A stretch of DNA of 64,000 nucleotides from Patescibacteria group bacterium (GCA_041666325.1 JBAYHC010000004.1:64929-128928); one strand, 5' to 3'. Counted from the stretch's first letter, positions 4,308 to 38,616 are shown. Notes: generated by a model not told the origin, from the sequence alone. Program-made: numbers and translations.

Positions 4308-6686
4308 ATGCAAAATATATTCAAAATTGCCTTGATTTGTGGCGGACCCTCGCTTGAACGAGGCATTTCCCTCAATTCCGCCCGATCGGTCATGGATAAC
4401 TTGGAGGACGACAACATTGAAATCGTCCCGTTCTACCTTGACCAACAGAGAAGAGCTTATCGTCTATCCAAGCCGCAGCTTTACTCTAATACGCCCTCTG
4501 ATTTTGATTTTAAGCTTAGCCGGACCGCCAAGCCACTCAGCCAAATCTCCTTCATTCGCAGACTGAGAGAGTGTGATATCGCCTTCCCTGTCATGCACGG
4601 TACATACGGCGAAGACGGCGGGATTCAACGTTTTCTGGAGAAAAACTCGATTCCATTCGTTGGCTCCGACTCGACTTCATGCAAGCAGGTTTTTGATAAA
4701 TTCAACGCCCACCAACTTCTGGGGGATCTTGATTTCAAGGTTATGCCGACCGCGCTGCTCAAGATCTATCATCATGACCACAAGCAAATTATTGATAAAT
4801 TTTTTGAGGCAAACAAGATTAAGCACGCCGTCGTCAAGCCAGCAAGCGGCGGATCAAGTATGGGTGTTTTTCCGGTCAGTAATACGATCGAGGCGCTCGA
4901 GAGGGCCAACTACCTTTTTTCTAAGCGCATTGACACCAGGGTTGTACTAGAGCCGTTCGCCGAGGGTATAGAATTCACTACCATTGTACTCGAAAATCGT
5001 TTTGGCCAACCGGTGGCTATCTTGCCGACAGAGATTGAGGCTGATTATGCGGAGCACCAAATTTTCGATTTCCGCAAAAAATATTTGCCCACTCGCCACG
5101 TCACCTACCACTGCCCACCTCGTTTTCCCAACAAGCTGATCGAACAAATCCAGATTCAGGCAGAACAAATCTTTTCAGCCACCAAGATGTCTGATTTTGC
5201 ACGATTTGACGGCTGGGTATTATCAGACGGTTCGATCTGGTTTTCTGATTTGAATCCAATTAGTGGCATGGAGCAGCACAGCTTTCTCTTCCAGCAGGCC
5301 TCGCGAGTTGGGCTCAGCCACAGAGGTGTCTTGCGCCATATCGTCAAAAGCGCCTGCCGCCGGCAAAGCATTGACTTTCCGGAGCGCCAACCACAAGCCA
5401 AAACTAGGCGTCGCGAGATCAATATCCTTTTCGGAGGCAACACATCAGAACGCCAAGTCTCCCTCTTAAGCGGTACCAATGCTTGGCTCAAACTTTTACA
5501 ATCGAAAAAATACCTTCCCAAACCGTATCTACTCGATCGGGAAAACAATGTTTGGCAGTTACCTTACAGTCTTGTACTCAATCATACAGTCGAAGAGATT
5601 GCTACGAACTGCAGCAAATTCTCAAAGAGTGAAAGGCGCTTGCGCTATCTGGAGAACAGGGTCAGATTTAGGCTTGGTCTCAGCCCGGAATCGAGCGATG
5701 CGCCGCTCTTTGCACCCCAGAAGCTCTCTCTCAAGAATTTTATCAAGAACTCTTCCTTTGTCTTCAACGCCCTGCATGGCGGAGAGGGTGAGAACGGTAT
5801 CCTGCAGCAACAATTCGAAAAACTTGGCACAAAATACAATGGACCAGATGCCACAGTTTCAAATCTATGTGCTGACAAGGCTCTGACACTCGAAGCAGTC
5901 AAAGCGAGCGGCATTCCCGGCATACATACAGCAAACTACATCACAGTTAGCACCGACGAATTGATCCATTTTGATAATTTTGGACTGAGCAACTACTGGA
6001 AAAAAATACTGAAAGATCTCAAGGCTGACTCTGTCGTGATTAAGCCCAAGTCCGATGGCTGTTCCTCTGGTGTTGCCCACCTTTTCAACCACAAAGACCT
6101 GGCGAACTATATTCGAGCAATCAGGGAGAACTGGCCTTCTATCCCCAAGGGCACGCTCCCTCATCAATTGAATGACATTGAGATGCCGACAGAGCAGCCG
6201 CATGACTTTTTGATCGAAGAATATGTTACTACTGACAAAATCTCTGTTCGAAATAATAAGCTCAACTATCAGCGACGTCGGGGCTGGATCGAGGTAACGA
6301 TTGGTGTGATCGAAAAAGACAACGAGATAATTGCGCTCAACCCAAGCCTGACTGTGGCCTCCGGCGAAATACTTTCGGTTGAAGAGAAATTTCAGGGTGG
6401 TACAGGCATAAACATCACGCCTCCCCCAAAAGAAATTATCAGTCAAAAAGCAATTAACCGGACGAAAGAGTTGATTGGCAAATTATCAAATCGTCTTGGT
6501 ATCAAGGGCTATTCTCGAATCGACGCCTTTCTCCAAGTTGACCGCGGCGATCTCATTATCATTGAAATAAACACTCTCCCAGCACTCACGCCCTCGACCG
6601 TTCTCTTCCATCAGGCCCTAGCCGAAGAAAAGCCTCTCTATCCGCGAGAATTACTCGAACAAATCATCTCAAGTGCCGGATACTAA
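4308..6686 (+). CDS. ddl: tandem-duplicated D-alanine--D-alanine ligase (two complete Ddl / ATP-grasp modules in one 792-aa polypeptide)
   Basis: First module: IALICGGPSLERGISLNSA...HGTYGEDGGIQ...VVKPASGGSSMGV. Second module: INILFGGNTSERQVSLLSGTNA...ALHGGEGENGILQ...VIKPKSDGCSSGVAHL...IIIEINTLPALTPSTV. Both carry Ddl N-terminal, central and ATP-grasp signatures. Confidence 0.8.
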   Translation: MQNIFKIALICGGPSLERGISLNSARSVMDNLEDDNIEIVPFYLDQQRRAYRLSKPQLYSNTPSDFDFKLSRTAKPLSQISFIRRLRECDIAFPVMHGTYGEDGGIQRFLEKNSIPFVGSDSTSCKQVFDKFNAHQLLGDLDFKVMPTALLKIYHHDHKQIIDKFFEANKIKHAVVKPASGGSSMGVFPVSNTIEALERANYLFSKRIDTRVVLEPFAEGIEFTTIVLENRFGQPVAILPTEIEADYAEHQIFDFRKKYLPTRHVTYHCPPRFPNKLIEQIQIQAEQIFSATKMSDFARFDGWVLSDGSIWFSDLNPISGMEQHSFLFQQASRVGLSHRGVLRHIVKSACRRQSIDFPERQPQAKTRRREINILFGGNTSERQVSLLSGTNAWLKLLQSKKYLPKPYLLDRENNVWQLPYSLVLNHTVEEIATNCSKFSKSERRLRYLENRVRFRLGLSPESSDAPLFAPQKLSLKNFIKNSSFVFNALHGGEGENGILQQQFEKLGTKYNGPDATVSNLCADKALTLEAVKASGIPGIHTANYITVSTDELIHFDNFGLSNYWKKILKDLKADSVVIKPKSDGCSSGVAHLFNHKDLANYIRAIRENWPSIPKGTLPHQLNDIEMPTEQPHDFLIEEYVTTDKISVRNNKLNYQRRRGWIEVTIGVIEKDNEIIALNPSLTVASGEILSVEEKFQGGTGINITPPPKEIISQKAINRTKELIGKLSNRLGIKGYSRIDAFLQVDRGDLIIIEINTLPALTPSTVLFHQALAEEKPLYPRELLEQIISSAGY

Positions 6687-7434: not shown

Positions 7435-8172
7435 ATGCAGGTACTGGTCGTAGGCACAGGCAGATCCGATCTGCCCCTTGTCGATACTTTGCTTAACCAT
7501 GGCATTATTGTCTCCATAGCCAGCAGTGACGGAGCGGCCGAAAAGTTCAACAGGGTTAAACCCGACATCGTTTTGGTCACCATTGAAGGACCCCTTCACA
7601 CAGCGGAAACCATCGAGAAAATCGTGGAGATTGATCCTGATGCCAGGATCGTTGCCATTTGCTTTGGAGACTCCAACGATCTTAGAGCAACCATTCGATC
7701 AGGAGCAATCTCTATATTGCTAGCTCCTGTTGACGAGGAACTCTTGCTCAGGCGGCTTGAACAGGTTGCGAAGCGGACTCCGGCCATCGGCGTCGATTCC
7801 CAATCAAAGCCGGGGAGCGGCAAGAAGTTCCTGGTCGTTGACGACGAACGACATATAATTGCCTTAATGAAGCTCAACCTGGAGCTCGCCGGGTTCGAGG
7901 TGGCGACTGCCGCCGATGGCATCGAGGCAGTTGAACGGTATCGGGCGTTCCAGCCTGATGTTGTTTTCATGGATCTGTGTATGCCGCGGATGGACGGCAC
8001 CGAAGCGATTCAGAAGATTATTGAGATGGATCCCGATGCCAGGATTATCTCCTCTTGCGGCATCGAAGAGAACGACCATGCCGCCCAAGCGGCAGGCGCT
8101 CGGGATTCGATTACCAAACCCTTCGGCCCGACTGATCTGATTAACAAGGCCTTAGTCTTGATGAAAGAATAG
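7435..8172 (+). CDS. response regulator with two receiver domains (first degenerate pseudo-receiver, second canonical CheY-like)
   Basis: Second half: KFLVVDDERHII...PDVVFMDLCMPRMDGTEAI...SSCG. First half is receiver-like but has Thr where the phospho-acceptor Asp is expected (DIVLVTIEGP). Confidence 0.7.
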   Translation: MQVLVVGTGRSDLPLVDTLLNHGIIVSIASSDGAAEKFNRVKPDIVLVTIEGPLHTAETIEKIVEIDPDARIVAICFGDSNDLRATIRSGAISILLAPVDEELLLRRLEQVAKRTPAIGVDSQSKPGSGKKFLVVDDERHIIALMKLNLELAGFEVATAADGIEAVERYRAFQPDVVFMDLCMPRMDGTEAIQKIIEMDPDARIISSCGIEENDHAAQAAGARDSITKPFGPTDLINKALVLMKE

Positions 8173-16562: not shown

Positions 16563-16880
16563 TCGTGAACAGATGTACTATTATCTGCTGCTGGGCTTGA
16601 AGATATATTTGTGAGCTAAAACATAGCCCTCTTATCCCCATACATATCCACAGGAAGTCGATCAATAGGCAAAGGGCGTAAGTAAATCACATTCTTGACC
16701 ACGCTCCTTTCCCCTTACGCCTATCTTCATTATCCTGTCTTTTTTCCAATAAAAATGGTATATTTAACTAGACAATATCGATTGTCCAACTGCGCCCCAA
16801 CAGGTCAGGGCTATGAGGGACAACACTTCGCCAATTTGGCCTGCCGGCCGTAACCTTGGCGAGGGTCGGAGGGGAAATAA

Positions 16881-19292
16881 ATGAATCGGAGCGAGCTAGT
16901 CAGGGCCGTGGCGGACAAGACGGATTTTTCGCTGGTCAAATCAGATAAGTTGGTTACCGCCCTGTGCGACACCATTACAGAAGCTTTAGAACGAGGCGAC
17001 AGAGTCGTCTATTCTAACTTTGGTTCGTTTTACACCGTCCACTATCCCTCAAAGGTCATCATCCATCCCAAGCTTGGCCTGGCTAAAAAAATGATAATGT
17101 TACCAACAAACGTAGCCAAATGGATGCCATCAGAGAATATAAAGAGTTTGGTCAGATCCGGTGAAACCAAGGGTTCGCCAACGCTCCACGCACTAAAATC
17201 AACCAACAAAGAAGTTCCGTCCGGTACCATCGTAGCGAGCAACAACACTACGAGAACGGTTCGCGATGAAACACCAGACTCCGATGAAACCATCGTACCA
17301 ATCCGTCTCTCCAGCCGAAACGCCAAAAACATTGTCGGGGCAGAAATTAACCCCGAACAGAAAAACAAAAATATCAACATCTATGAAGAGTTAATGCAGG
17401 ACGGCAGCAAAGAAGAGACAACTTTTAATGGCGCAATCAGGGTCCCCAAAGACAGAAGCAAGCCATTTTGGAGCAAGCTCTTTAATCGCTCTAAAGACCA
17501 GGAATCATCTACCCCAACAATTGGTCACATAGACAACCAAAACAAAGACACCCAGAAAGTCTCACTGGTTGATTCAGGCGTATTCGATCCCGCCAGCAAA
17601 CCGGAAACTATGGCAGTGCAAGCCACTGCGGAACAAAGCGCTGGAGCCGGTCTTGCCAGTCATCCTCAGGGCGAGACAGTTTCAGTTCAGACAAACAATG
17701 ATCAGACACCCATCGAAAAACCCATTGCGCCATTTCCATCTAATCCGATGGAGATCTCGTATATAGATCTATCCAAAGCGATTGTTCCCAAAGAAATTCT
17801 ACAAAAAATCCCTGAGAAAATTGCTCGCCACTACGGAGTCGTGCCAGTCGAGGAGAACGATAACGAGCTTGTCGTTGCCATGACAGATCCCGAGGACATC
17901 GAGGCGAAAGAGTTAATCAAGAAGTATGCCCAAAAGCCGCTAAAAGTGAGGCTTGGCACACAAGCCGACATCAACCATGTGCTAGACCAATACCAAGGAC
18001 TAGAGTCAGAAGTCCTGGAAGCTATCGAAGAAGTGAACACCGAAGAGGAGGAGAACAACAAAACAGACAACGGCAAGGCAGCAAATCTTACGGTTGCCGA
18101 CGATGCTCCAACAGCAAGGATTGTCAATTCTCTCCTCAGGCGCGCGATTCGAGATAAGGCCTCGGACGTACATATTGAACCACTAGAGAATGAGGTTCAG
18201 GTCCGCTTCAGAATTGATGGCGTTTTACACAAAAAGTTAACTTTACCAAAAGATATTCAGCTGTCAGTCTCCTCCAGGATAAAGATCCTATCCAACATAA
18301 AGATTGACGAGCAACGCTTGCCTCAAGACGGACGATTTAGCATAAGCATCGACAACAGAAGAGTAGATTTTCGTGTCTCCACTCTCCCCACGGCTTACGG
18401 CGAAAAAATTGTCATGAGAATCCTAGATAAGGCCTCTGGAGTTTTAACAGTTGAGCAACTTGGTCTTCAGGGCATGGGCCTCGACGCGCTAACTCAAAAT
18501 CTAGAAAAATCACATGGCATGATCCTGGTGACTGGCCCAACGGGATCAGGTAAAACCACTACTCTTTACGCCCTGATTGATAAGCTTTTTGCCGAGGGCG
18601 TTAATATCGTCACTCTCGAAGACCCGATCGAGTACCAGATGCCAGGCATTAACCAGAGCCAGGTTAACTCCAACATAGACTACACTTTTGCATCAGGATT
18701 GCGCTCAATAGTCAGGCAGGATCCGGATATTATTATGATCGGGGAAATTAGAGACATGGACACAGCCGAGATGGCGGTTCAGGCCGCCCTGACCGGCCAC
18801 GTTGTCCTCTCCACTCTCCACACCAATGATGCTGCCGGCGCAGCACCGCGATTAATAGATATGGGTGTCGAGCCATTTCTTCTTACCTCCTCGGTCAATG
18901 TCATTATCGGACAACGCCTCGCCAGAAAGATATGCGATGAGTGCAAGGAGAAAGATGCGATTCCTGAAGCAGAGATAGAGAGCGTCAAAAAAATTATCGA
19001 CACTATGCCCGAAAAAGAAAAGAAGGAAATGTCCAGCAAGGAGCTTGTTTTCTATAAGGGAAAGGGTTGCAAATCCTGCGACAACACAGGCTATCGTGGC
19101 AGAATCGGCATATTCGAGGTCCTAAGTGTTACCGAGACAGTCAGAGATTTGGTTCTGCGCAAGGTCTCCTCGGGAGAGATTCAGACCAAGGCAATCGAGG
19201 ACGGGATGGTAACAATGATTCAAGACGGAATAATTAAGTCCCTTGAAGGCAAAACCTCGCTGGAAGAGGTTTGGAGAGTAACAAAAGATTAA
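16881..19292 (+). CDS. pilB: type IV pilus assembly ATPase PilB/GspE family with N-terminal HU/IHF-like DNA-binding domain and disordered linker
   Basis: C-terminal Walker A VTGPTGSGKTTTLYA, the GspE N-domain and a tetracysteine motif CDECK...CKSCDNTGYRGR. Residues 1-90 (MNRSELVRAVADKTDFSLVKSDKLVTALCDTITEALERGDRVVYSNFGSFYTV...) align with HU/IHF, followed by a Ser/Thr/Asn/Gln-rich linker of about 190 aa. Confidence 0.85.
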   Translation: MNRSELVRAVADKTDFSLVKSDKLVTALCDTITEALERGDRVVYSNFGSFYTVHYPSKVIIHPKLGLAKKMIMLPTNVAKWMPSENIKSLVRSGETKGSPTLHALKSTNKEVPSGTIVASNNTTRTVRDETPDSDETIVPIRLSSRNAKNIVGAEINPEQKNKNINIYEELMQDGSKEETTFNGAIRVPKDRSKPFWSKLFNRSKDQESSTPTIGHIDNQNKDTQKVSLVDSGVFDPASKPETMAVQATAEQSAGAGLASHPQGETVSVQTNNDQTPIEKPIAPFPSNPMEISYIDLSKAIVPKEILQKIPEKIARHYGVVPVEENDNELVVAMTDPEDIEAKELIKKYAQKPLKVRLGTQADINHVLDQYQGLESEVLEAIEEVNTEEEENNKTDNGKAANLTVADDAPTARIVNSLLRRAIRDKASDVHIEPLENEVQVRFRIDGVLHKKLTLPKDIQLSVSSRIKILSNIKIDEQRLPQDGRFSISIDNRRVDFRVSTLPTAYGEKIVMRILDKASGVLTVEQLGLQGMGLDALTQNLEKSHGMILVTGPTGSGKTTTLYALIDKLFAEGVNIVTLEDPIEYQMPGINQSQVNSNIDYTFASGLRSIVRQDPDIIMIGEIRDMDTAEMAVQAALTGHVVLSTLHTNDAAGAAPRLIDMGVEPFLLTSSVNVIIGQRLARKICDECKEKDAIPEAEIESVKKIIDTMPEKEKKEMSSKELVFYKGKGCKSCDNTGYRGRIGIFEVLSVTETVRDLVLRKVSSGEIQTKAIEDGMVTMIQDGIIKSLEGKTSLEEVWRVTKD

Positions 19293-19437
19293 TAAAGGCA
19301 AAAGTTAGCAAGGCACCAGGCGAAAAAGATGCGGTCAAGAAAGAATGTGGTTCTCTTACGCCTTACGCCTTTCACACTTACGCCCGCCTGCATCGTCTGG
19401 AGCGAAGCGACTGCGGGCAGGCCTTACACCATTTATC
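19290..19437 (+). repeat. intergenic repeat element copy A (AGGCAAAAGTTAGCAAG ... hairpin CGCCCGCCTGCATCGYCTGGAGCGAAGCGACTGCGGGCAGGC ... ACACC) immediately upstream of pilC
   Basis: Near-identical 42-nt hairpin core also at 20697-20739 and 37956-37998; flanking modules are also shared. Confidence 0.6.
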
Positions 19438-20628
19438 ATGCAATACACCTACAGCGCAAAAGATGACAAGGGAAATATTATAAAAGGCACGCTAGAAGCA
19501 GCGTCTGAAATCTCGGCTGCGAACGCTCTCCGCGCCAAGGCCCTTTTCCTGCTGGACCTCAAGACCAAAAAATCCCCAAGAGCGATTTGGCAACGCCGTG
19601 TTCCGCTCAAGGAGAGAATTATCTTTACTCAGCAATTGGAGATTATGGTCAGATCAGGCTTACCGCTCGTTGATGCGATCACATCTCTCCAGGAAGAAAC
19701 CGAAAACAAAAGATTTGCCTCCGAACTCTCGCAAGTTGTGGCTAGTGTGGAAACGGGATCACTTCTTTCGGACGCACTGGCCAAATTCCCCAAAACTTTC
19801 AGCGAAGTATACGTCAACCTGGTACGATCCGGAGAGAAGACGGGCCAACTAGACAAAGTCCTGCAACGTCTGTCTGGTCAACTTCAGAAAGACTTTGAGG
19901 TAAATAGAAAGGTGAAGGGCGCCCTATCCTACCCACTGTTTATTCTCACTGCGCTGATTGGCGTGATGGTTTTGATTCTAAACGCGATTATCCCGCAACT
20001 GCAACAAATATTTGACGATGTTGGTGCCGAGCTTCCCCTTTCTACCCGCATCGTGATTGGGGCTAGTAAATTTACACGAAGCTATGGCGTTTTTACTCTG
20101 GCGTTTATCATTGTGGCAATTGTCTTAATATCCCGTTGGCTCAAAACAGCCCAAGGCAAGAGATTCTTTGATCGTTTTTTACTGAAAATACCGGTTATCG
20201 GACTCTTGCTCAGAAAGTCGTACCTGGCTCGCTTGACTCGTACCTTTGCTGCTTTATCAAACGCCGGCCTACCAGTGCTTGAGGCGCTGCGGGTGTCGAG
20301 CAATGTAATCGGAAACTCCGTCTACGAAAGAGAGGTTGTGAAGGTTGCCGACAGAGTAAAAAATGGGCAAACAATCTCGAAGGCGTTCGGAGAGAGCCCG
20401 CTATTTCCGGCAATGATTATGCAGCTAGCCTCTGTTGGCGAAAAGTCCGGCAACATCGGAGAGGTTTTTGACAGCTTGGCCGACTTCTTCGACAGGGATG
20501 TCGACTCCATAACAACAAATTTATCAACAATGCTTGAACCACTGTTAGTCATTATTCTGGGTGTTGGGATAGCAGCCATCATCATATCTGTTCTGCAGCC
20601 AATCTATGGATTAGTAAATACGATGTAG
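19438..20628 (+). CDS. pilC: type IV pilus inner-membrane platform protein PilC (GspF family)
   Basis: Two GspF repeats and three TM segments. Start placed at MQYTYSAKD because the upstream tool start would translate through the repeat element. Confidence 0.8.
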   Translation: MQYTYSAKDDKGNIIKGTLEAASEISAANALRAKALFLLDLKTKKSPRAIWQRRVPLKERIIFTQQLEIMVRSGLPLVDAITSLQEETENKRFASELSQVVASVETGSLLSDALAKFPKTFSEVYVNLVRSGEKTGQLDKVLQRLSGQLQKDFEVNRKVKGALSYPLFILTALIGVMVLILNAIIPQLQQIFDDVGAELPLSTRIVIGASKFTRSYGVFTLAFIIVAIVLISRWLKTAQGKRFFDRFLLKIPVIGLLLRKSYLARLTRTFAALSNAGLPVLEALRVSSNVIGNSVYEREVVKVADRVKNGQTISKAFGESPLFPAMIMQLASVGEKSGNIGEVFDSLADFFDRDVDSITTNLSTMLEPLLVIILGVGIAAIIISVLQPIYGLVNTM

Positions 20629-20630
20629 AT

Positions 20631-20764
20631 GTTAGGCGAAAGTTAGCAAGACGAAAGTAAGACAAGTATCGATTCAAGCAGCAGCTCTGACACCTTGCGC
20701 CCGCCTGCATCGCCTGGAGCGAAGCGACTGCGGGCAGGCTTTTTACACCATTATTTGGAGACGT
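20631..20764 (+). repeat. intergenic repeat element copy B immediately upstream of pilM
   Basis: AGGCGAAAGTTAGCAAGACGAAAG ... GCGCCCGCCTGCATCGCCTGGAGCGAAGCGACTGCGGGCAGGC ... TTTTTACACC. Confidence 0.6.
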
Positions 20765-21706: not shown

Positions 21707-21752
21707 ATCAGAGTGTGAAAGGGCGAAAGTTCTAAGCACTAAGTAACACGCA

Positions 21753-21810
21753 GTGTCATCCCGAGCAAGTGAGGCTTGCGAGTCGAGGGATCCCATTGCA
21801 ACAATGCGAC
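21753..21810 (+). other. candidate structured RNA motif, copy 2 (UCAUCCCGAG-hairpin-GUCGAGGGAUCCCAU-hairpin-CGAC) in the pilM-pilN spacer
   Basis: See copy 1 at 8351-8416. Flanked by the inverted repeats GTGTGAAAG / CTTTCACAC and CTAAGCACTAAGT / ACTTAGTAC. Confidence 0.4.
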
Positions 21811-21868
21811 TCCTTTCGCCCCACAAAGGAGCCCCTGGTGGGACACTTAGTACTTTCACACCAATATC

Positions 21869-29361: not shown

Positions 29362-30117
29362 TTGTCAATGAACAACAAAAATCTCGAAACATTAATCGAT
29401 CTTGGTATGGAGGACAAAGAGGCAAGAATCTATCTTTCACTCCTTGCGCTTGGCAATGCCACCGTCGCTGATGTTGCACAACGATCTGGTATTAAGCGAA
29501 CTACCATTTATTTCATACTGGAAAATCTCAAGAAGAAAGGGCTGGCTCACCGATTGAAGGTAGATACAAAAACTTTCTATTCGGCTGAGCGTCCGCAAAT
29601 GCTACTGCGCCACGAGAATGAAAAAGTTAAAAAATTAGAGGAGATACTACCCTCCCTTGTTTCATTGGGTCACGCCAAATCACAGAGAGCAAAGGTACTC
29701 TTTTTTGACAGCGAGGAGGGCTTCAAGCAAATCTGGTTTCGCCTCTTCCAATCTGGCGAAAAAGAGTACTTGATTATCACCGACCCAAGAGAGATGCTCT
29801 ACTTCGTACGCAAAAATTACATCACCGGCAAGATCATTAAGGAAAAAATCGAACGAGATATAAGCAGTCGCCAGATCATCGCGGCATCAACCTACGCCAA
29901 AGAGATTGTGGCCAAGGACAAAGAAGAAAACCGCACCTCAAAAATTTTGCCGTTCGGCCACTCGCTACCCTTCACCACGATAATCTTTGGCGATAATGTT
30001 GCCCTTATCTCTCCCATCATGGAGAATATTATTCTTCTAATTGAAAGCGAGGCCTTTGCGCAAACCGAACGCTCCAAGTTCGAGGCGCTGTGGCAATCAT
30101 TGTCCGCTAGCAGCTAA
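29362..30117 (+). CDS. TrmB-family transcriptional regulator (paralog 2 of 3)
   Basis: wHTH LIDLGMEDKEARIYLSLLALGNATVADVAQRSGIKRTTIYFILENLKKKGL. Confidence 0.65.
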   Translation: MSMNNKNLETLIDLGMEDKEARIYLSLLALGNATVADVAQRSGIKRTTIYFILENLKKKGLAHRLKVDTKTFYSAERPQMLLRHENEKVKKLEEILPSLVSLGHAKSQRAKVLFFDSEEGFKQIWFRLFQSGEKEYLIITDPREMLYFVRKNYITGKIIKEKIERDISSRQIIAASTYAKEIVAKDKEENRTSKILPFGHSLPFTTIIFGDNVALISPIMENIILLIESEAFAQTERSKFEALWQSLSASS

Positions 30118-36420: not shown

Positions 36421-36494
36421 TCCGAGATCGTCTAGTGGCAGGACAGCGGATTCTGGCTCCGCTAACCTAGGTTCGAATCCTAGTCTCGGAACCA
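36421..36494 (+). tRNA. tRNA-Gln (anticodon CUG)
   Basis: Hand-folded: acceptor UCCGAGA/UCUCGGA, anticodon stem GCGGA/UCCGC with loop UUCUGGC, T-arm CUAGG-UUCGAAU-CCUAG, encoded ACCA. Confidence 0.8.
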
Positions 36495-36665
36495 AGAAAA
36501 GAGCTTTCATTGAGAGCTCTTTTCTTGGTTTGTAGGATTCGAACTGGGAAGGGGTCGGGAAACGGGAGTTTCCCGTGTCGGAAGGTTGGGAAACCGAGGG
36601 TTTCCCAAAGCGAGACGTAGAAGCGAGCGCTCGAGATCCTAGTCTCGGAACCAAGAAAAGCACTC
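36495..36665 (+). repeat. tRNA-Gln-linked repeat: terminator-like 16-bp hairpin, shared 31-nt GGGAAAC/GTTTCCC motif (antisense), then a direct duplicate of the tRNA 3' end plus a loop-flipped hairpin
   Basis: GA(A)TCCTAGTCTCGGAACCAAGAAAAG occurs at 36474-36499 and 36638-36665; the hairpin loops agctttcattgagagct and cactctcaatgaaagtg are near reverse complements. Confidence 0.6.
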
Positions 36666-37051
36666 TCAATGAAAGTGCTCTTCTTGGTTAATCAAGACTA
36701 CTCAAATTTGCTCGTATACGTATTTTAACTCGGCCCCAGGACTCAATAATTTCTCCATTTATTTAGTCCTATGAGAGCAATTTTTTTCAATTAAGCGTTT
36801 GGAATCTGCTTGTCTCCATAAATCCAAGCGGAACTCGCTGTAAGCTAGAGTTGGAGCCACAAGGACCTGTTCAAATACTTTTTCCTGAAGCGAGAGCGAG
36901 ATGATATCAGGCGAAAAACAGGAATTGTGAGGAGGAATAGCCAAAAGCTATTATGACAAGCAATTCGTGCTTTGCAGCCGAAATCAGCCGCTCACAGCTA
37001 TCGGACACAAGTGTTTGGGCAGGTCCCAATGCTCGGAAAGGAGGTGAGAAT

Positions 37052-37858
37052 ATGCAGATAAGACTGAGGACACGAATGACAATCTGGCTCATAGCAGCGA
37101 TAATTGCAGTTGGCGGATCAATAGGTCTCGGCTCTAATTCAGCTGAGGCGCACGACTGCGCTTGTAGCTGTGGGCAGCAGGTTCAAACCACAACAAAACG
37201 GGTTATCGCCGCACCTAAAAAATTCAGACACAGAAAGGTTGTTCATCAGGCCCCGATCGAGAAAAGAATTATAGTCAAAAAGGTTGTCGTCAAAGAAGTA
37301 GTTCATGAGCCGATTGAGAAAACCGTCATCGTGAAGGAGCCGGTGGTGCTGCGTGAAAGCATTGTCAATGAAGGACCAGTTGTTGTCGAAAAGAAGGTAA
37401 TCGTGAAGGAGCCGGTGGTGGTTAAAGAGCCAACCATTATCAAGGAAACAAAGGTGATTAAAGAACCCGTTATAATCAAAGAAAAAGTAGTAATCAAGGA
37501 GCCTGTTGTCGTCAAGGAAAAAGTAATTATCAAAGAACCGATAATAATCAAGAAGCCCATCATTATCAAAGAACCGGTCGTGATTAAGGAACCGGTAATA
37601 ATCAAAGAGCCGGTCATTATCAAACAACCAACCCCCGCTGTTCAACAGCCGATTCAGCACAACGAGATTACGGATATCGAGCGAACAACAATAAGAAGCG
37701 GTGACGACGTCAACGTTTCTACCCGCTCAGTCAACACGATCAATGCAAGAGGATCAAGTTTCAACCGAATCTACAACGCTGATCGTCAAAGTATTTCGGC
37801 CGATGGTGATGTTAGTGTTAGTAACACCAATATCAACACAATAAACGCAAGGTTCTAG
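37052..37858 (+). CDS. secreted repetitive protein with about 25 tandem hexapeptide (V/I)(V/I)(I/V)KEP repeats
   Basis: GGAGGTG RBS, then a signal peptide MQIRLRTRMTIWLIAAIIAVGGSIGLGSNSAEA, then repeats VIVKEPVVVKEPTIIKETKVIKEPVIIKEKVVIKEP... Confidence 0.6.
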   Translation: MQIRLRTRMTIWLIAAIIAVGGSIGLGSNSAEAHDCACSCGQQVQTTTKRVIAAPKKFRHRKVVHQAPIEKRIIVKKVVVKEVVHEPIEKTVIVKEPVVLRESIVNEGPVVVEKKVIVKEPVVVKEPTIIKETKVIKEPVIIKEKVVIKEPVVVKEKVIIKEPIIIKKPIIIKEPVVIKEPVIIKEPVIIKQPTPAVQQPIQHNEITDIERTTIRSGDDVNVSTRSVNTINARGSSFNRIYNADRQSISADGDVSVSNTNINTINARF

Positions 37859-37904
37859 GTACAACCAACTTAGATAACTTAACTAAGGCCCCGCTCGGGG
37901 CTTT

Positions 37905-38040
37905 GGTGTATAACTTAGGCAAAAGGCGAAAGGAAAGCAAATATATGGCCCTCTTGCGCCCGCATGCATCGCCTGGAGCGAAGCGACTGCGGGCAGGCCT
38001 CTCACACTTACGCCTAATATATGCTATAATCCCTCATATC
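37905..38040 (+). repeat. intergenic repeat element copy C immediately upstream of gmk
   Basis: AGGCAAAAGGCGAAAGG ... GCGCCCGCATGCATCGCCTGGAGCGAAGCGACTGCGGGCAGGC ... CACACTTACGCC, followed by an extended -10 TGCTATAAT. Confidence 0.6.
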
Positions 38041-38616
38041 ATGAACAATAAACCACCCCTAATCGTTATCGTTTCCGGCCCGTCAGGGGCAGGCAAAAAT
38101 TCTGTCGTCGCACCACTGCGAGCAAAGACCGATGATTTTGCTTTTTCTATTTCTTACACAACAAGACAAACAATTCGCCCCGACGAAATCGATGGGCGAG
38201 ACTATCATTTTGTGAGTAGCGCTGAGTTCGCTCATTCTATCCAGAAAGAAGAATTTTTGGAGTGGCAAGATGTCTTTGAAAACCGTTATGGCACCAAAAG
38301 GTCTGATTTTGAGAAGCTTCTTACAACAAACAAGACTGTTGTTGCTCTCCTGGACGTTAAGGGAGCGATGTGCGTAAAGGGGGAGTACCCAAATGTTGTA
38401 ACTGTTTTTGTTATGCCGCCCGATTTAGACATCGCCTCAGAACGGCTGGAGAAGCGGGCAACGGACTCCGAAACGTCTCGGAATATCCGCAAAGAAAGAT
38501 ATGCCCTAGAAATGGACTACAAGGACAAATACGACTATATTATTGTCAACGACGACCTACCAATGGCCCAGCAAGAACTCTCTAGCATTATCAGTAGCAG
38601 ATTGCTCAAAAATTAG
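38041..38616 (+). CDS. gmk: guanylate kinase
   Basis: LIVIVSGPSGAGKNSV P-loop, the YHF guanylate-binding block and RLEKRATDSE. Start at MNNKPP, since the upstream tool start would read through the repeat. Confidence 0.8.
   Translation: MNNKPPLIVIVSGPSGAGKNSVVAPLRAKTDDFAFSISYTTRQTIRPDEIDGRDYHFVSSAEFAHSIQKEEFLEWQDVFENRYGTKRSDFEKLLTTNKTVVALLDVKGAMCVKGEYPNVVTVFVMPPDLDIASERLEKRATDSETSRNIRKERYALEMDYKDKYDYIIVNDDLPMAQQELSSIISSRLLKN

Follow-up and report, generated by a model that had tools for sequence, protein, structure and literature searches.

Nested palindromic repeats, probably selfish, in spacers and housekeeping genes of a Patescibacteria genome

[quoted passage not shown] It is a member of none of them by sequence or by all of their defining features. 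RPEs are about 100-150 bp long and specific to Rickettsia. REPs by definition lie outside genes, have a conserved 5' tetranucleotide of the GTAG type and do not duplicate their target when they insert; the MITE Correia duplicates TA. In mycobacterial interspersed repetitive units (MIRUs), which are minisatellite units arranged in tandem, the open reading frames (ORFs) overlap the stop and start codons of the flanking genes. Supply et al. 1997 reportedly described MIRUs as short operon-spacer repeats that keep one orientation to transcription and sometimes hold small ORFs in phase with the flanking genes. RPEs are multi-copy palindromes found both between genes and in frame within unrelated housekeeping genes, where they add a short peptide and the protein is kept (PMC10969869), and MITEs that insert into one another and upstream of genes have been described (PMC10969869).

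We consider it likely that what the first-pass annotation of the window took for a single 130-nt repeat is in fact two nested, non-coding, selfish palindromic repeats of the MITE, REP or Rickettsia RPE kind: a short hairpin (element B) set within a longer, more diverged host (element A). Selfish mobile repeats are favoured because the same hairpin occurs in frame inside housekeeping genes. The analysis covered ~80 kb, comprising the window and ~16 kb of additional flank from the same contig (segments L123 and L124, searched by blastn-short).

Set against the described systems, the hairpin resembles RPEs in being found in spacers as well as in frame in an IscS-like gene (99 nt), in the gene for MnmA (60 nt) and in that for RsmH on the related contig L004 (39 nt). 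It differs from RPEs, with which it was compared by description, in its length of 39-41 nt and its residence in Patescibacteria; we know of no sequence similarity between the two, nor of any description for RPEs of a 7-mer triplication that keeps the frame. With REPs and REPINs, which are mobilized by REP-associated tyrosine transposases (RAYTs; IS200/IS605-type Y1 transposases), it shares the character of a short (20-40 nt), GC-rich, imperfect palindrome present in many copies and able to form a hairpin in single-stranded DNA or RNA, and the GTCAT-hairpins treated below occur as inverted doublets in the manner of REPINs. Unlike REPs, three of the six hairpin copies on the window's contig are intragenic, no copy has GTAG beside it, several are flanked by direct repeats of 5-7 nt, and the Pfam tables of the ~80 kb contain no RAYT or Y1 transposase gene. 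Element A has the architecture of MITEs such as Correia of Neisseria and the enterobacterial repetitive intergenic consensus (ERIC): it has terminal inverted repeats, is 60-105 nt long and non-coding, and occurs in several copies, near gene starts and nested. It differs in having no sequence similarity to Correia or ERIC, and neither a consistent target-site duplication nor a shared promoter or IHF site was found. The repeats resemble MIRUs as short operon-spacer repeats in one orientation, sometimes with small in-phase ORFs; they differ in that most copies are solitary, in being palindromic, and in occurring within genes and antisense as well.

Hairpin and host element

The first-pass annotation had placed three same-strand copies upstream of pilC, pilM and gmk, and a 41-nt core, GCCCGCCTGCATCGCCTGGAGCGAAGCGACTGCGGGCAGGC, was indeed found at all three sites on the plus strand with no more than one mismatch (Table 1); 100 dinucleotide-preserving shuffles yielded no match to it. 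The genes named as neighbours (pilB, pilC, pilM, pilN, pilO and gmk) are all supported by Pfam. A repeat finder delimited a gap-free family of 55 nt (19377-19431, 20694-20748 and 37953-38007) at 87-100% identity. The repeat is therefore real, but only ~55 nt of the ~130 nt attributed to it are well conserved; the remaining ~80 nt align poorly, and over their whole length the three copies reach a mean column identity of 65%, core included, with indels. The poorly aligning portion is read as a separate, older element. The reported distance of 0-45 nt from the start codon holds only when the boundaries are drawn to the ATG, since the repeated part stops 15, 8-25 and 23 nt short of it. Among the flanking motifs, AGGCRAAAG was found six times against 1.7 expected and the related module GGCGAAAGTT was recovered in the pilM-pilN spacer as described; of the 3' tail (ACACC / TTAGCAAG), TTAGCAAG is missing in the gmk copy.

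Element B is a GC-rich hairpin of 39-41 nt, CCGCCTGCATCGCCTGGAGCGAAGCGACTGCGGGCAGG, in effect two arms of ~14 nt around a 10-nt loop. The two halves given for a 10-bp stem (GCCCGCCTGC/GCGGGCAGGC) do not complement each other exactly; the stem is predicted to comprise ~14-15 pairs, among them a G.U pair, together with a C.A mismatch and a bulge. As RNA the hairpin has a free energy of -22 to -24 kcal/mol, with a z of only -1.6 to -2.1 against shuffles, and the opposite strand and the DNA form fold about as well. In an alignment of seven copies the 5' arm varies, and the 3' half, CTGGAGCGAAGCGACTGCGGGC, does not, even from one genome to another.

Nesting was observed directly. In all three window copies the hairpin is placed right after a CTTRCGCC motif (13 occurrences against 3.7 expected), at differing places within the host: after the first CTCTTGCGCC unit in copy 3 and after the last CACACTTACGCC unit in copy 1, where the sequence reads CACA-CTTAC-(hairpin)-CTTAC-ACC. 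An independent assembly of the same organism (a Logan contig) breaks at ~37979, within copy 3, as expected for a repeat.

Element A is ~60-105 nt long and diverged, with terminal inverted repeats AGGCGTAAG...CTTACGCCT (consensus TTAGGCGTAAGGCGAAAG ... CTTTCACRCTTACGCCTAA), and its purine-rich 5' arm and pyrimidine-rich 3' arm form a long imperfect palindrome that folds with z of -2.7 to -3.5. With the hairpin removed, the three window hosts align with one another and with a hairpin-less copy in the flank (L124 4477-4557): AGGCGTAAGGCGAAAGTTAGCAAGGAGAAAAAATATGTGGCTCTCTTGCACCTCTCACTTGAGCCTTTCACGCTTACGCCT. The ends of this fourth copy, which lies antisense in the 5' region of holA, form a perfect 9-nt inverted repeat. 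An nhmmer profile of these four sequences detected a fifth member at 16665-16724, and the AGGCGTAAG...CTTACGCCT ends are present both there and at L124 4477-4557; the host of copy 1, itself in the build set of the hairpin-removed profile, scored E=1e-26 with it. This host also contains an internal ATG at 19345, in the pilC frame. The related element that fills the pilM-pilN spacer has a different internal hairpin, GTCATCCCGAG...TCGAGGGATC, at 21755-21792, and adjoins the ATG of pilN, which lacks a Shine-Dalgarno sequence. Five to six members of 60-150 nt were counted; the ~80 kb contain 63 spacers that measure 70 nt or more, and 6 of these are occupied by such elements. Their flanks read AT..AT, TC..TC and TT..AA, and a consistent target duplication was not seen. 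The hairpins are 95-100% identical to one another and the hosts ~60%; the simplest reading is that of recent, independent hairpin insertions into an old element with a preferred target; an alternative is that host and hairpin spread together as one composite unit.

The hairpin was also found within genes. Six hairpin copies lie in the ~80 kb of this contig, three in the window and three in L123 no more than 9 kb beyond the right window end, and no further copy was found in that range. The hairpin was thereby observed in both orientations, the three in L123 being antisense to their genes. The insert in the IscS-like (cysteine desulfurase) gene encodes 33 amino acids (PRYLPAVASLQAMQADEIPARSRFAPGDAGGRD) and consists of two 39-nt hairpins, read in different frames, and three 7-mers (2 x 39 nt + 3 x 7 nt = 99 nt; ACGAGAT-CCAAGAT-(39 nt)-ACGAGAT-(39 nt)-ACGAGAT). 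That in mnmA (PARSRFAPGDAGRRAMSYEL) consists of one 39-nt hairpin and three 7-mers (60 nt; CGAGCTA-(39 nt)-CGAGCTA-TGAGCTA-TGAACTA). The direct repeats that flank the hairpin are therefore ACGAGAT in IscS and CGAGCTA in MnmA, and CTTAC at copy 1. In both genes the three extra 7-mers bring the insert to a multiple of three; the ORFs stay open, and solved homologues align on both sides with a gap exactly at the inserts. The MnmA segment is common to none of 13 aligned Patescibacteria homologues, six shorter ones having a gap there, and the closest relatives hold unrelated inserts at this place. On the related contig L004 a clean, sense, in-frame insert of 39 nt (13 codons) was found in rsmH (...APDG-LPAKAGAKRLRAG-KILAFELD); this ORF too stays open, and solved homologues align to either side of it. 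A search of metagenomes with the 20-mer from the hairpin's centre had recovered a variant, CCTGCCCGCCAAAGCTGGAGCGAAGCGACTGCGGGCGGG, on contigs of lower GC; the insert in rsmH is one copy of this variant, and another adjoins a tRNA (L003/L007).

A short hairpin, CTGCCCGC-AAATGGA-GCGGGCAG, was also noticed in a GC-rich (57%) spacer at L123 ~8020-8050 (~64,360-64,390 in window numbering, just beyond the window). Its stem is that of the repeat and its loop is 10 nt shorter; it may be related to the repeat, as a decayed or an ancestral form.

The pil spacers of relatives lack the element. An identical PilM is encoded on ENA contig ERZ27249449:k141_1320167 and on JGI 3300037810 Ga0376277_0000969; the nearest PilM homologues are at most 61% identical. 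Two syntenic relatives (L128 and L129; dnaX; HU-pilB, pilC, pilM, pilN, pilO) were examined, and the element was not found in their orthologous pilB-pilC, pilC-pilM and pilM-pilN spacers. Their pilB-pilC gaps measure 123 nt and, in L129, 4 nt (TAGaataATG), and their other pil spacers hold unrelated inverted repeats of the CACACTGATC...GATCAGTGT type. The element is thus lineage-specific, and an insertion relative to at least one relative. The spacers of the pil operon may be insertion hot spots, or a structured spacer may be selected there. The relatives' own inverted repeats, CACACTGATC...GATCAGTGT and AGTTATTAGTTATCAGT...ACTGATAACTAATAACT, were located at L128 2808-2930, 4131-4204 and 5165-5284 and at L129 5988-6087.

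Table 1. Positions of hairpins, host elements and neighbouring signals in the window and its flanks (L123, L124)
Feature	Position	Strand	Remarks
Hairpin copy 1 ('W-type', 39-41 nt)	19382..19422	+	pilB-pilC spacer; 1 mismatch to core; direct repeat CTTAC both sides
Hairpin copy 2	20699..20739	+	pilC-pilM spacer; 0 mismatches to core; sole copy with a T5 run after it (terminator-like)
Hairpin copy 3	37958..37998	+	upstream of gmk; 1 mismatch to core
Hairpin pair	L123 1063-1100, 1109-1146	antisense to gene	tandem 46-nt units within IscS-like (cysteine desulfurase) gene
Hairpin copy	L123 4414-4454	antisense to gene	within mnmA
Host of copy 1	19294..19384	+	purine-rich arm AAAGGCAAAAGTTAGCAAGGCACCAGGCGAAAAAG... 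opposite pyrimidine-rich arm with three CTTACGCC units
Host of copy 2	20631..20701	+	TGTTAGGCGAAAGTTAGCAAG...CTTGCGCC; most degenerate host copy
Host of copy 3	37915..38017	+	terminal inverted repeat TTAGGC...GCCTAA; hairpin sits between CTCTTGCGCC and CTCTCACACTTACGCC
Short hairpin-less host member	16665..16724	-	ATAGGC..GGCGTAAG....CTTACGCCTAT; divergent dnaX-pilB spacer; nhmmer E=6e-4; fold z -3.5
Hairpin-less host copy	L124 4477-4557	opposite to polA-like gene and holA	between polA-like stop and holA ATG
Related terminal-inverted-repeat element	21713..21861	+	ends GTGTGAAAG...CTTTCACAC; fills pilM-pilN spacer; fold z -3.5
3' tail CTTACACCATTTATC	19423..19437	+	adjoins pilC ATG (19438); no Shine-Dalgarno
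Terminator-like hairpin GCCCC-GCTC-GGGGC then TTT	37888..37904	+	belongs to upstream gene; read from sequence, not listed by consensus scan
Extended -10 box TGcTATAAT	38022..38030	+	10 nt before gmk ATG (38041), downstream of element; pattern match only

How the repeats may have spread

According to the model that we favour, element A would be the older, diverged element of MITE architecture, into which the young element B inserted after CTTRCGCC, as it also did into coding genes. Element B would have been moved in trans by an enzyme encoded elsewhere, its insertion often leaving direct repeats of 5-7 nt. Copies would survive only at permissive sites, that is, in intergenic spacers or in protein loops where 39 nt (13 codons) and three 7-mers keep the frame. 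We infer that an insertion of 39 + 7 nt puts the gene out of frame and that, in essential genes, survival was limited to derivatives in which the 7-mer had been duplicated further. Any effect on expression would be secondary, and a role in the stability or processing of the pil mRNA is possible: within the pilB-pilC-pilM transcript the hairpin could act as an exonuclease barrier or, at copy 2, as a weak terminator.

Several points weigh against this model. The Pfam tables of called genes in the ~80 kb show no transposase or RAYT gene, and presence/absence polymorphism between near-identical strains is not demonstrable with nearest relatives that are ~60% identical in protein. Copies 2 and 3 and the L004 insert have imperfect direct repeats or none, and six copies make for weak orientation statistics. 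The three window copies are alike in strand and in proximity to a start codon, two of them lying in the frame of the downstream gene; no Shine-Dalgarno sequence precedes pilC, pilN, gmk or holA, and each of these genes begins directly behind the end of an element. Finally, the invariance of the CTGGAGCGAAGCGACTGCGGGC half beside a variable 5' arm hints at a sequence-specific constraint beyond selfish spread.

As nested mobile palindromes, the repeats would show that a small, streamlined Patescibacteria genome hosts such elements and, much as Rickettsia tolerates RPEs, tolerates them in essential genes (for a cysteine desulfurase and a tRNA thiouridylase), and inserts of this kind may account for part of the length variation of CPR proteins such as MnmA. 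They merit masking in annotation, where they can produce false N-terminal extensions (PilC and Gmk), assembly breaks and confusion with riboswitches.

Regulatory and coding alternatives

A clear Shine-Dalgarno sequence precedes 46 of 64 genes in this genome; pilC (19438), pilN (21869) and gmk (38041) have none, each reading WTATC-ATG after the element, and holA (L124 4468) reads GCCTGAATATT-ATG (AATATT-ATG) after the hairpin-less copy, likewise with no Shine-Dalgarno. Because pilC and pilN of the relatives also have no clear Shine-Dalgarno, the elements did not obviously destroy one. A possibility weaker than the recognition module proposed below is that operons gain, from the ends of the elements, start sites (WTATC-AUG) that are independent of a Shine-Dalgarno sequence. 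Separately, a TATAAT-like box was noticed 5-10 nt before the start of several genes that have no Shine-Dalgarno, including those at 29368, 58223 (minus strand), 12267 (minus strand) and 38041, which suggests that leaderless or near-leaderless mRNAs may exist in this genome.

Toward gmk, the terminator-like hairpin (37888-37904) is followed by the element (37915-38017), the -10 box (38022-38030) and the ATG (38041). Lying between the terminator hairpin and the -10 box, the element probably falls outside the gmk leader, and this copy is probably not part of the gmk mRNA. The proposal that the repeat bears a promoter was not upheld, as scans found no promoter-like site common to the copies. Nor was a terminator-like site common to them found: the terminator scan lists no copy, and a T-run (TTTTT) is present only at copy 2.

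The alternative that fares best, although we regard it as unlikely, is that the intercistronic hairpins have been co-opted in the manner of the REPs and bacterial interspersed mosaic elements (BIMEs) of E. coli, and would set the differential expression of pilB-pilC-pilM-pilN through an exonuclease block, partial termination, or RNase processing that frees the starts with no Shine-Dalgarno. In its favour, three spacers of a single operon are filled, by copy 1, copy 2 and the pilM-pilN element respectively, the hairpin is stable as RNA (-22 to -24 kcal/mol), a TTTTT follows copy 2, and the same spacers in relatives hold long inverted repeats of unrelated sequence. The genes that adjoin the elements, with their common WTATC-ATG and no Shine-Dalgarno, are consistent with it too, and RNase III and RNase E are known to process Correia and ERIC elements (PMC10969869). 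However, the T-run accompanies only one of six copies, the same hairpin is found within ORFs and antisense, gmk is probably transcribed without the copy before it, and pilC has no Shine-Dalgarno in a relative free of the element either.

The cis-regulatory RNA, riboswitch-like or attenuator-like, that the first-pass annotation had proposed found no support. As a dedicated leader common to pilC, pilM and gmk it could explain three sense copies near start codons, each with a stable hairpin as its core, and absence from Rfam would be compatible with a novel family; we nonetheless judge it highly improbable. Rfam 15 at the gathering threshold returned only four tRNAs over the whole window and nothing at 12 related loci, and in E-value mode copy 1 gave only chance-level miRNA matches (E >= 0.045). 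In an RNAalifold analysis of seven copies from three genomes, a small sample, none of the 15 predicted pairs showed a compensatory change on both sides, and the covariation term was unfavourable (+1.25). Conservation outside the hairpin is poor, the orthologous leaders of relatives contain no element, pilC, pilM and gmk are functionally unlinked, and the likely promoter of gmk stands downstream of the copy there. The copies had also been described as always sense and always in 5' leaders, whereas three are intragenic and antisense and a host element lies antisense before holA. This distribution, with the same hairpin inside genes and in the opposite orientation, is what the annotation's own alternative, a miniature repeat, would predict, and that alternative is borne out.

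A coding reading, in which the elements would supply N-terminal peptide modules (MWFSYALRLSHLRPPASSGAKRLRAGLTPFI-PilC from the ORF 19345-20628 and MALLRPHASPGAKRLRAGLSHLRLIYAIIPHI-Gmk from 37945), appears equally far-fetched. Copies 1 and 3 are open and in frame into pilC and gmk (ORFs 19345-20628 and 37903-38616), gene callers report the extended products (PilC, 427 aa; Gmk, 223 aa), and the host element has a Shine-Dalgarno-like AAGGA(G) followed by an ATG. Two in-frame open stretches in GC-rich DNA are, however, not unlikely by chance, and copy 2 is out of the pilM frame. The start codons at 19438 and 38041, which give the shorter products, agree with the Pfam domains and with the N-termini of relatives, whose PilC begins MQY or MQF. 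In the long ORF the domain of Gmk starts at residue 55, and the upstream ATG precedes the extended -10 box of gmk. A six-frame peptide query against a set of 5.8 billion proteins gave 699 candidates, none with E <= 10.

Four other candidates were rejected: an integron attC site (GTTAGGC is present in copy 2 only, and the genes are core genes, not cassettes), a DNA-uptake sequence (at ~1 copy per 13 kb, the density is far too low), a CRISPR remnant (the spacing is irregular) and a self-cleaving ribozyme (Rfam gave no match).

A centre shared across phyla, and neighbouring features

An invariant 18-nt centre, GGAGCGAAGCGACTGCGG, is common to the window hairpin, to a second Patescibacteria variant and to a multi-copy hairpin of the form GTCAT...ATC (the GTCAT-hairpin) in metagenome-assembled genomes (MAGs) of many phyla. 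The 18-mer matched at least 113 stretches (loci L010-L122) in 185,579 species-representative genomes, in which the 23-mer GGAGCGAAGCGACTGCGGGCAGG had no match. Among the matches listed, ~85 of 120 show the context GTCATTGCGAA-GGAGCGAAGCGACTGCGG-CAATCT, with multiple copies per MAG, and the MAG labels include WOR-3, Planctomycetota/Pirellulales, Elusimicrobia, Sphingomonadales, Omnitrophota, CPR2, Dadabacteria and others. In rare variants (ATCGC...GCGAT and ATTCC...GGAAT), changes on both sides preserve the outer stem. The window hairpin has the exact 18-nt centre with CAT(C/T)GC on its left, both hairpins are multi-copy, and relatives of the GTCAT family insert in frame in Patescibacteria genes. 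The window hairpin differs in that it has no GTCAT...ATC ends and has another outer stem (CCGCCTGCA / TGCGGGCAGG). The common centre may reflect common descent or a shared constraint.

Since the centre is invariant while the outer stems of the GTCAT-hairpin vary by compensatory changes, it might be a recognition module, for instance of a widespread single-strand-DNA transposase or a host factor, and might define an undescribed cross-phylum superfamily, REP- or RPE-like, that remodels CPR proteins by in-frame insertion. We put this forward tentatively, as a speculative and rather doubtful extension drawn from sequence comparison. The 18-nt centre is in any case a lead toward an uncharacterized and very widespread family of hairpin repeats. 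The GTCAT-hairpin is not in Rfam, its 35-mer was unmatched in plasmids and the 18-mer in viral contigs; the window's 55-nt repeat (20694-20748) was unmatched in plasmids as well. Full-text searches with GTCATTGCGA, GAGCGAAGCGA and TCGCAATGAC returned unrelated primer matches or nothing, and no paper naming the GTCAT-hairpin was found; a search of the literature on Patescibacteria MITEs likewise found no paper on these repeats.

The internal hairpin of the pilM-pilN spacer (21755-21792) is in the GTCAT...GATC style, like the GTCAT-hairpin. MnmA homologues of Patescibacteria range from 334 to 448 aa owing to lineage-specific inserts at a few hot spots. Two such inserts, checked in the DNA (L131 3001-4296 and L132 770-2053), are in-frame inverted doublets of related GTCAT-hairpins that encode peptides such as SCHSERSEES and SCHSCESRNL; an example of such a doublet in the mnmA of another member of the Patescibacteria is GTCATTCCTGCGAAAGCAGGAATC-TTAA-GATCCCTGATCTAGTCAGGGATGAC.

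Other features were noticed in the window and its flanks. PilB has an N-terminal HU-type DNA-binding domain (Pfam Bac_DNA_binding, residues 1-91; window 16881-19292), and the same fusion is present in the two relatives with ~60% identical PilM (L128 381-2807 and L129 1193-3694). The last 18 nt of tRNA-Gln together with a 40-nt palindrome (36477-36530) recur at 36636-36689 with 85% identity and ~105 nt between (window 36421-36689), a duplication that looks like the att-site scar of an almost vanished integrated element. Within an ORF with no Pfam match (36953-37858), a 33-nt unit, GAGAAAACCGTCATCGTGAAGGAGCCGGTGGTG, occurs three times at 70-100% identity (37316-37582) as a coding repeat. A 792-aa protein with two complete D-Ala-D-Ala ligase modules is encoded at window 4308-6686, and DNA polymerase I is apparently split into separate genes for the 5'-3' exonuclease and the polymerase (L124 4559-7059).

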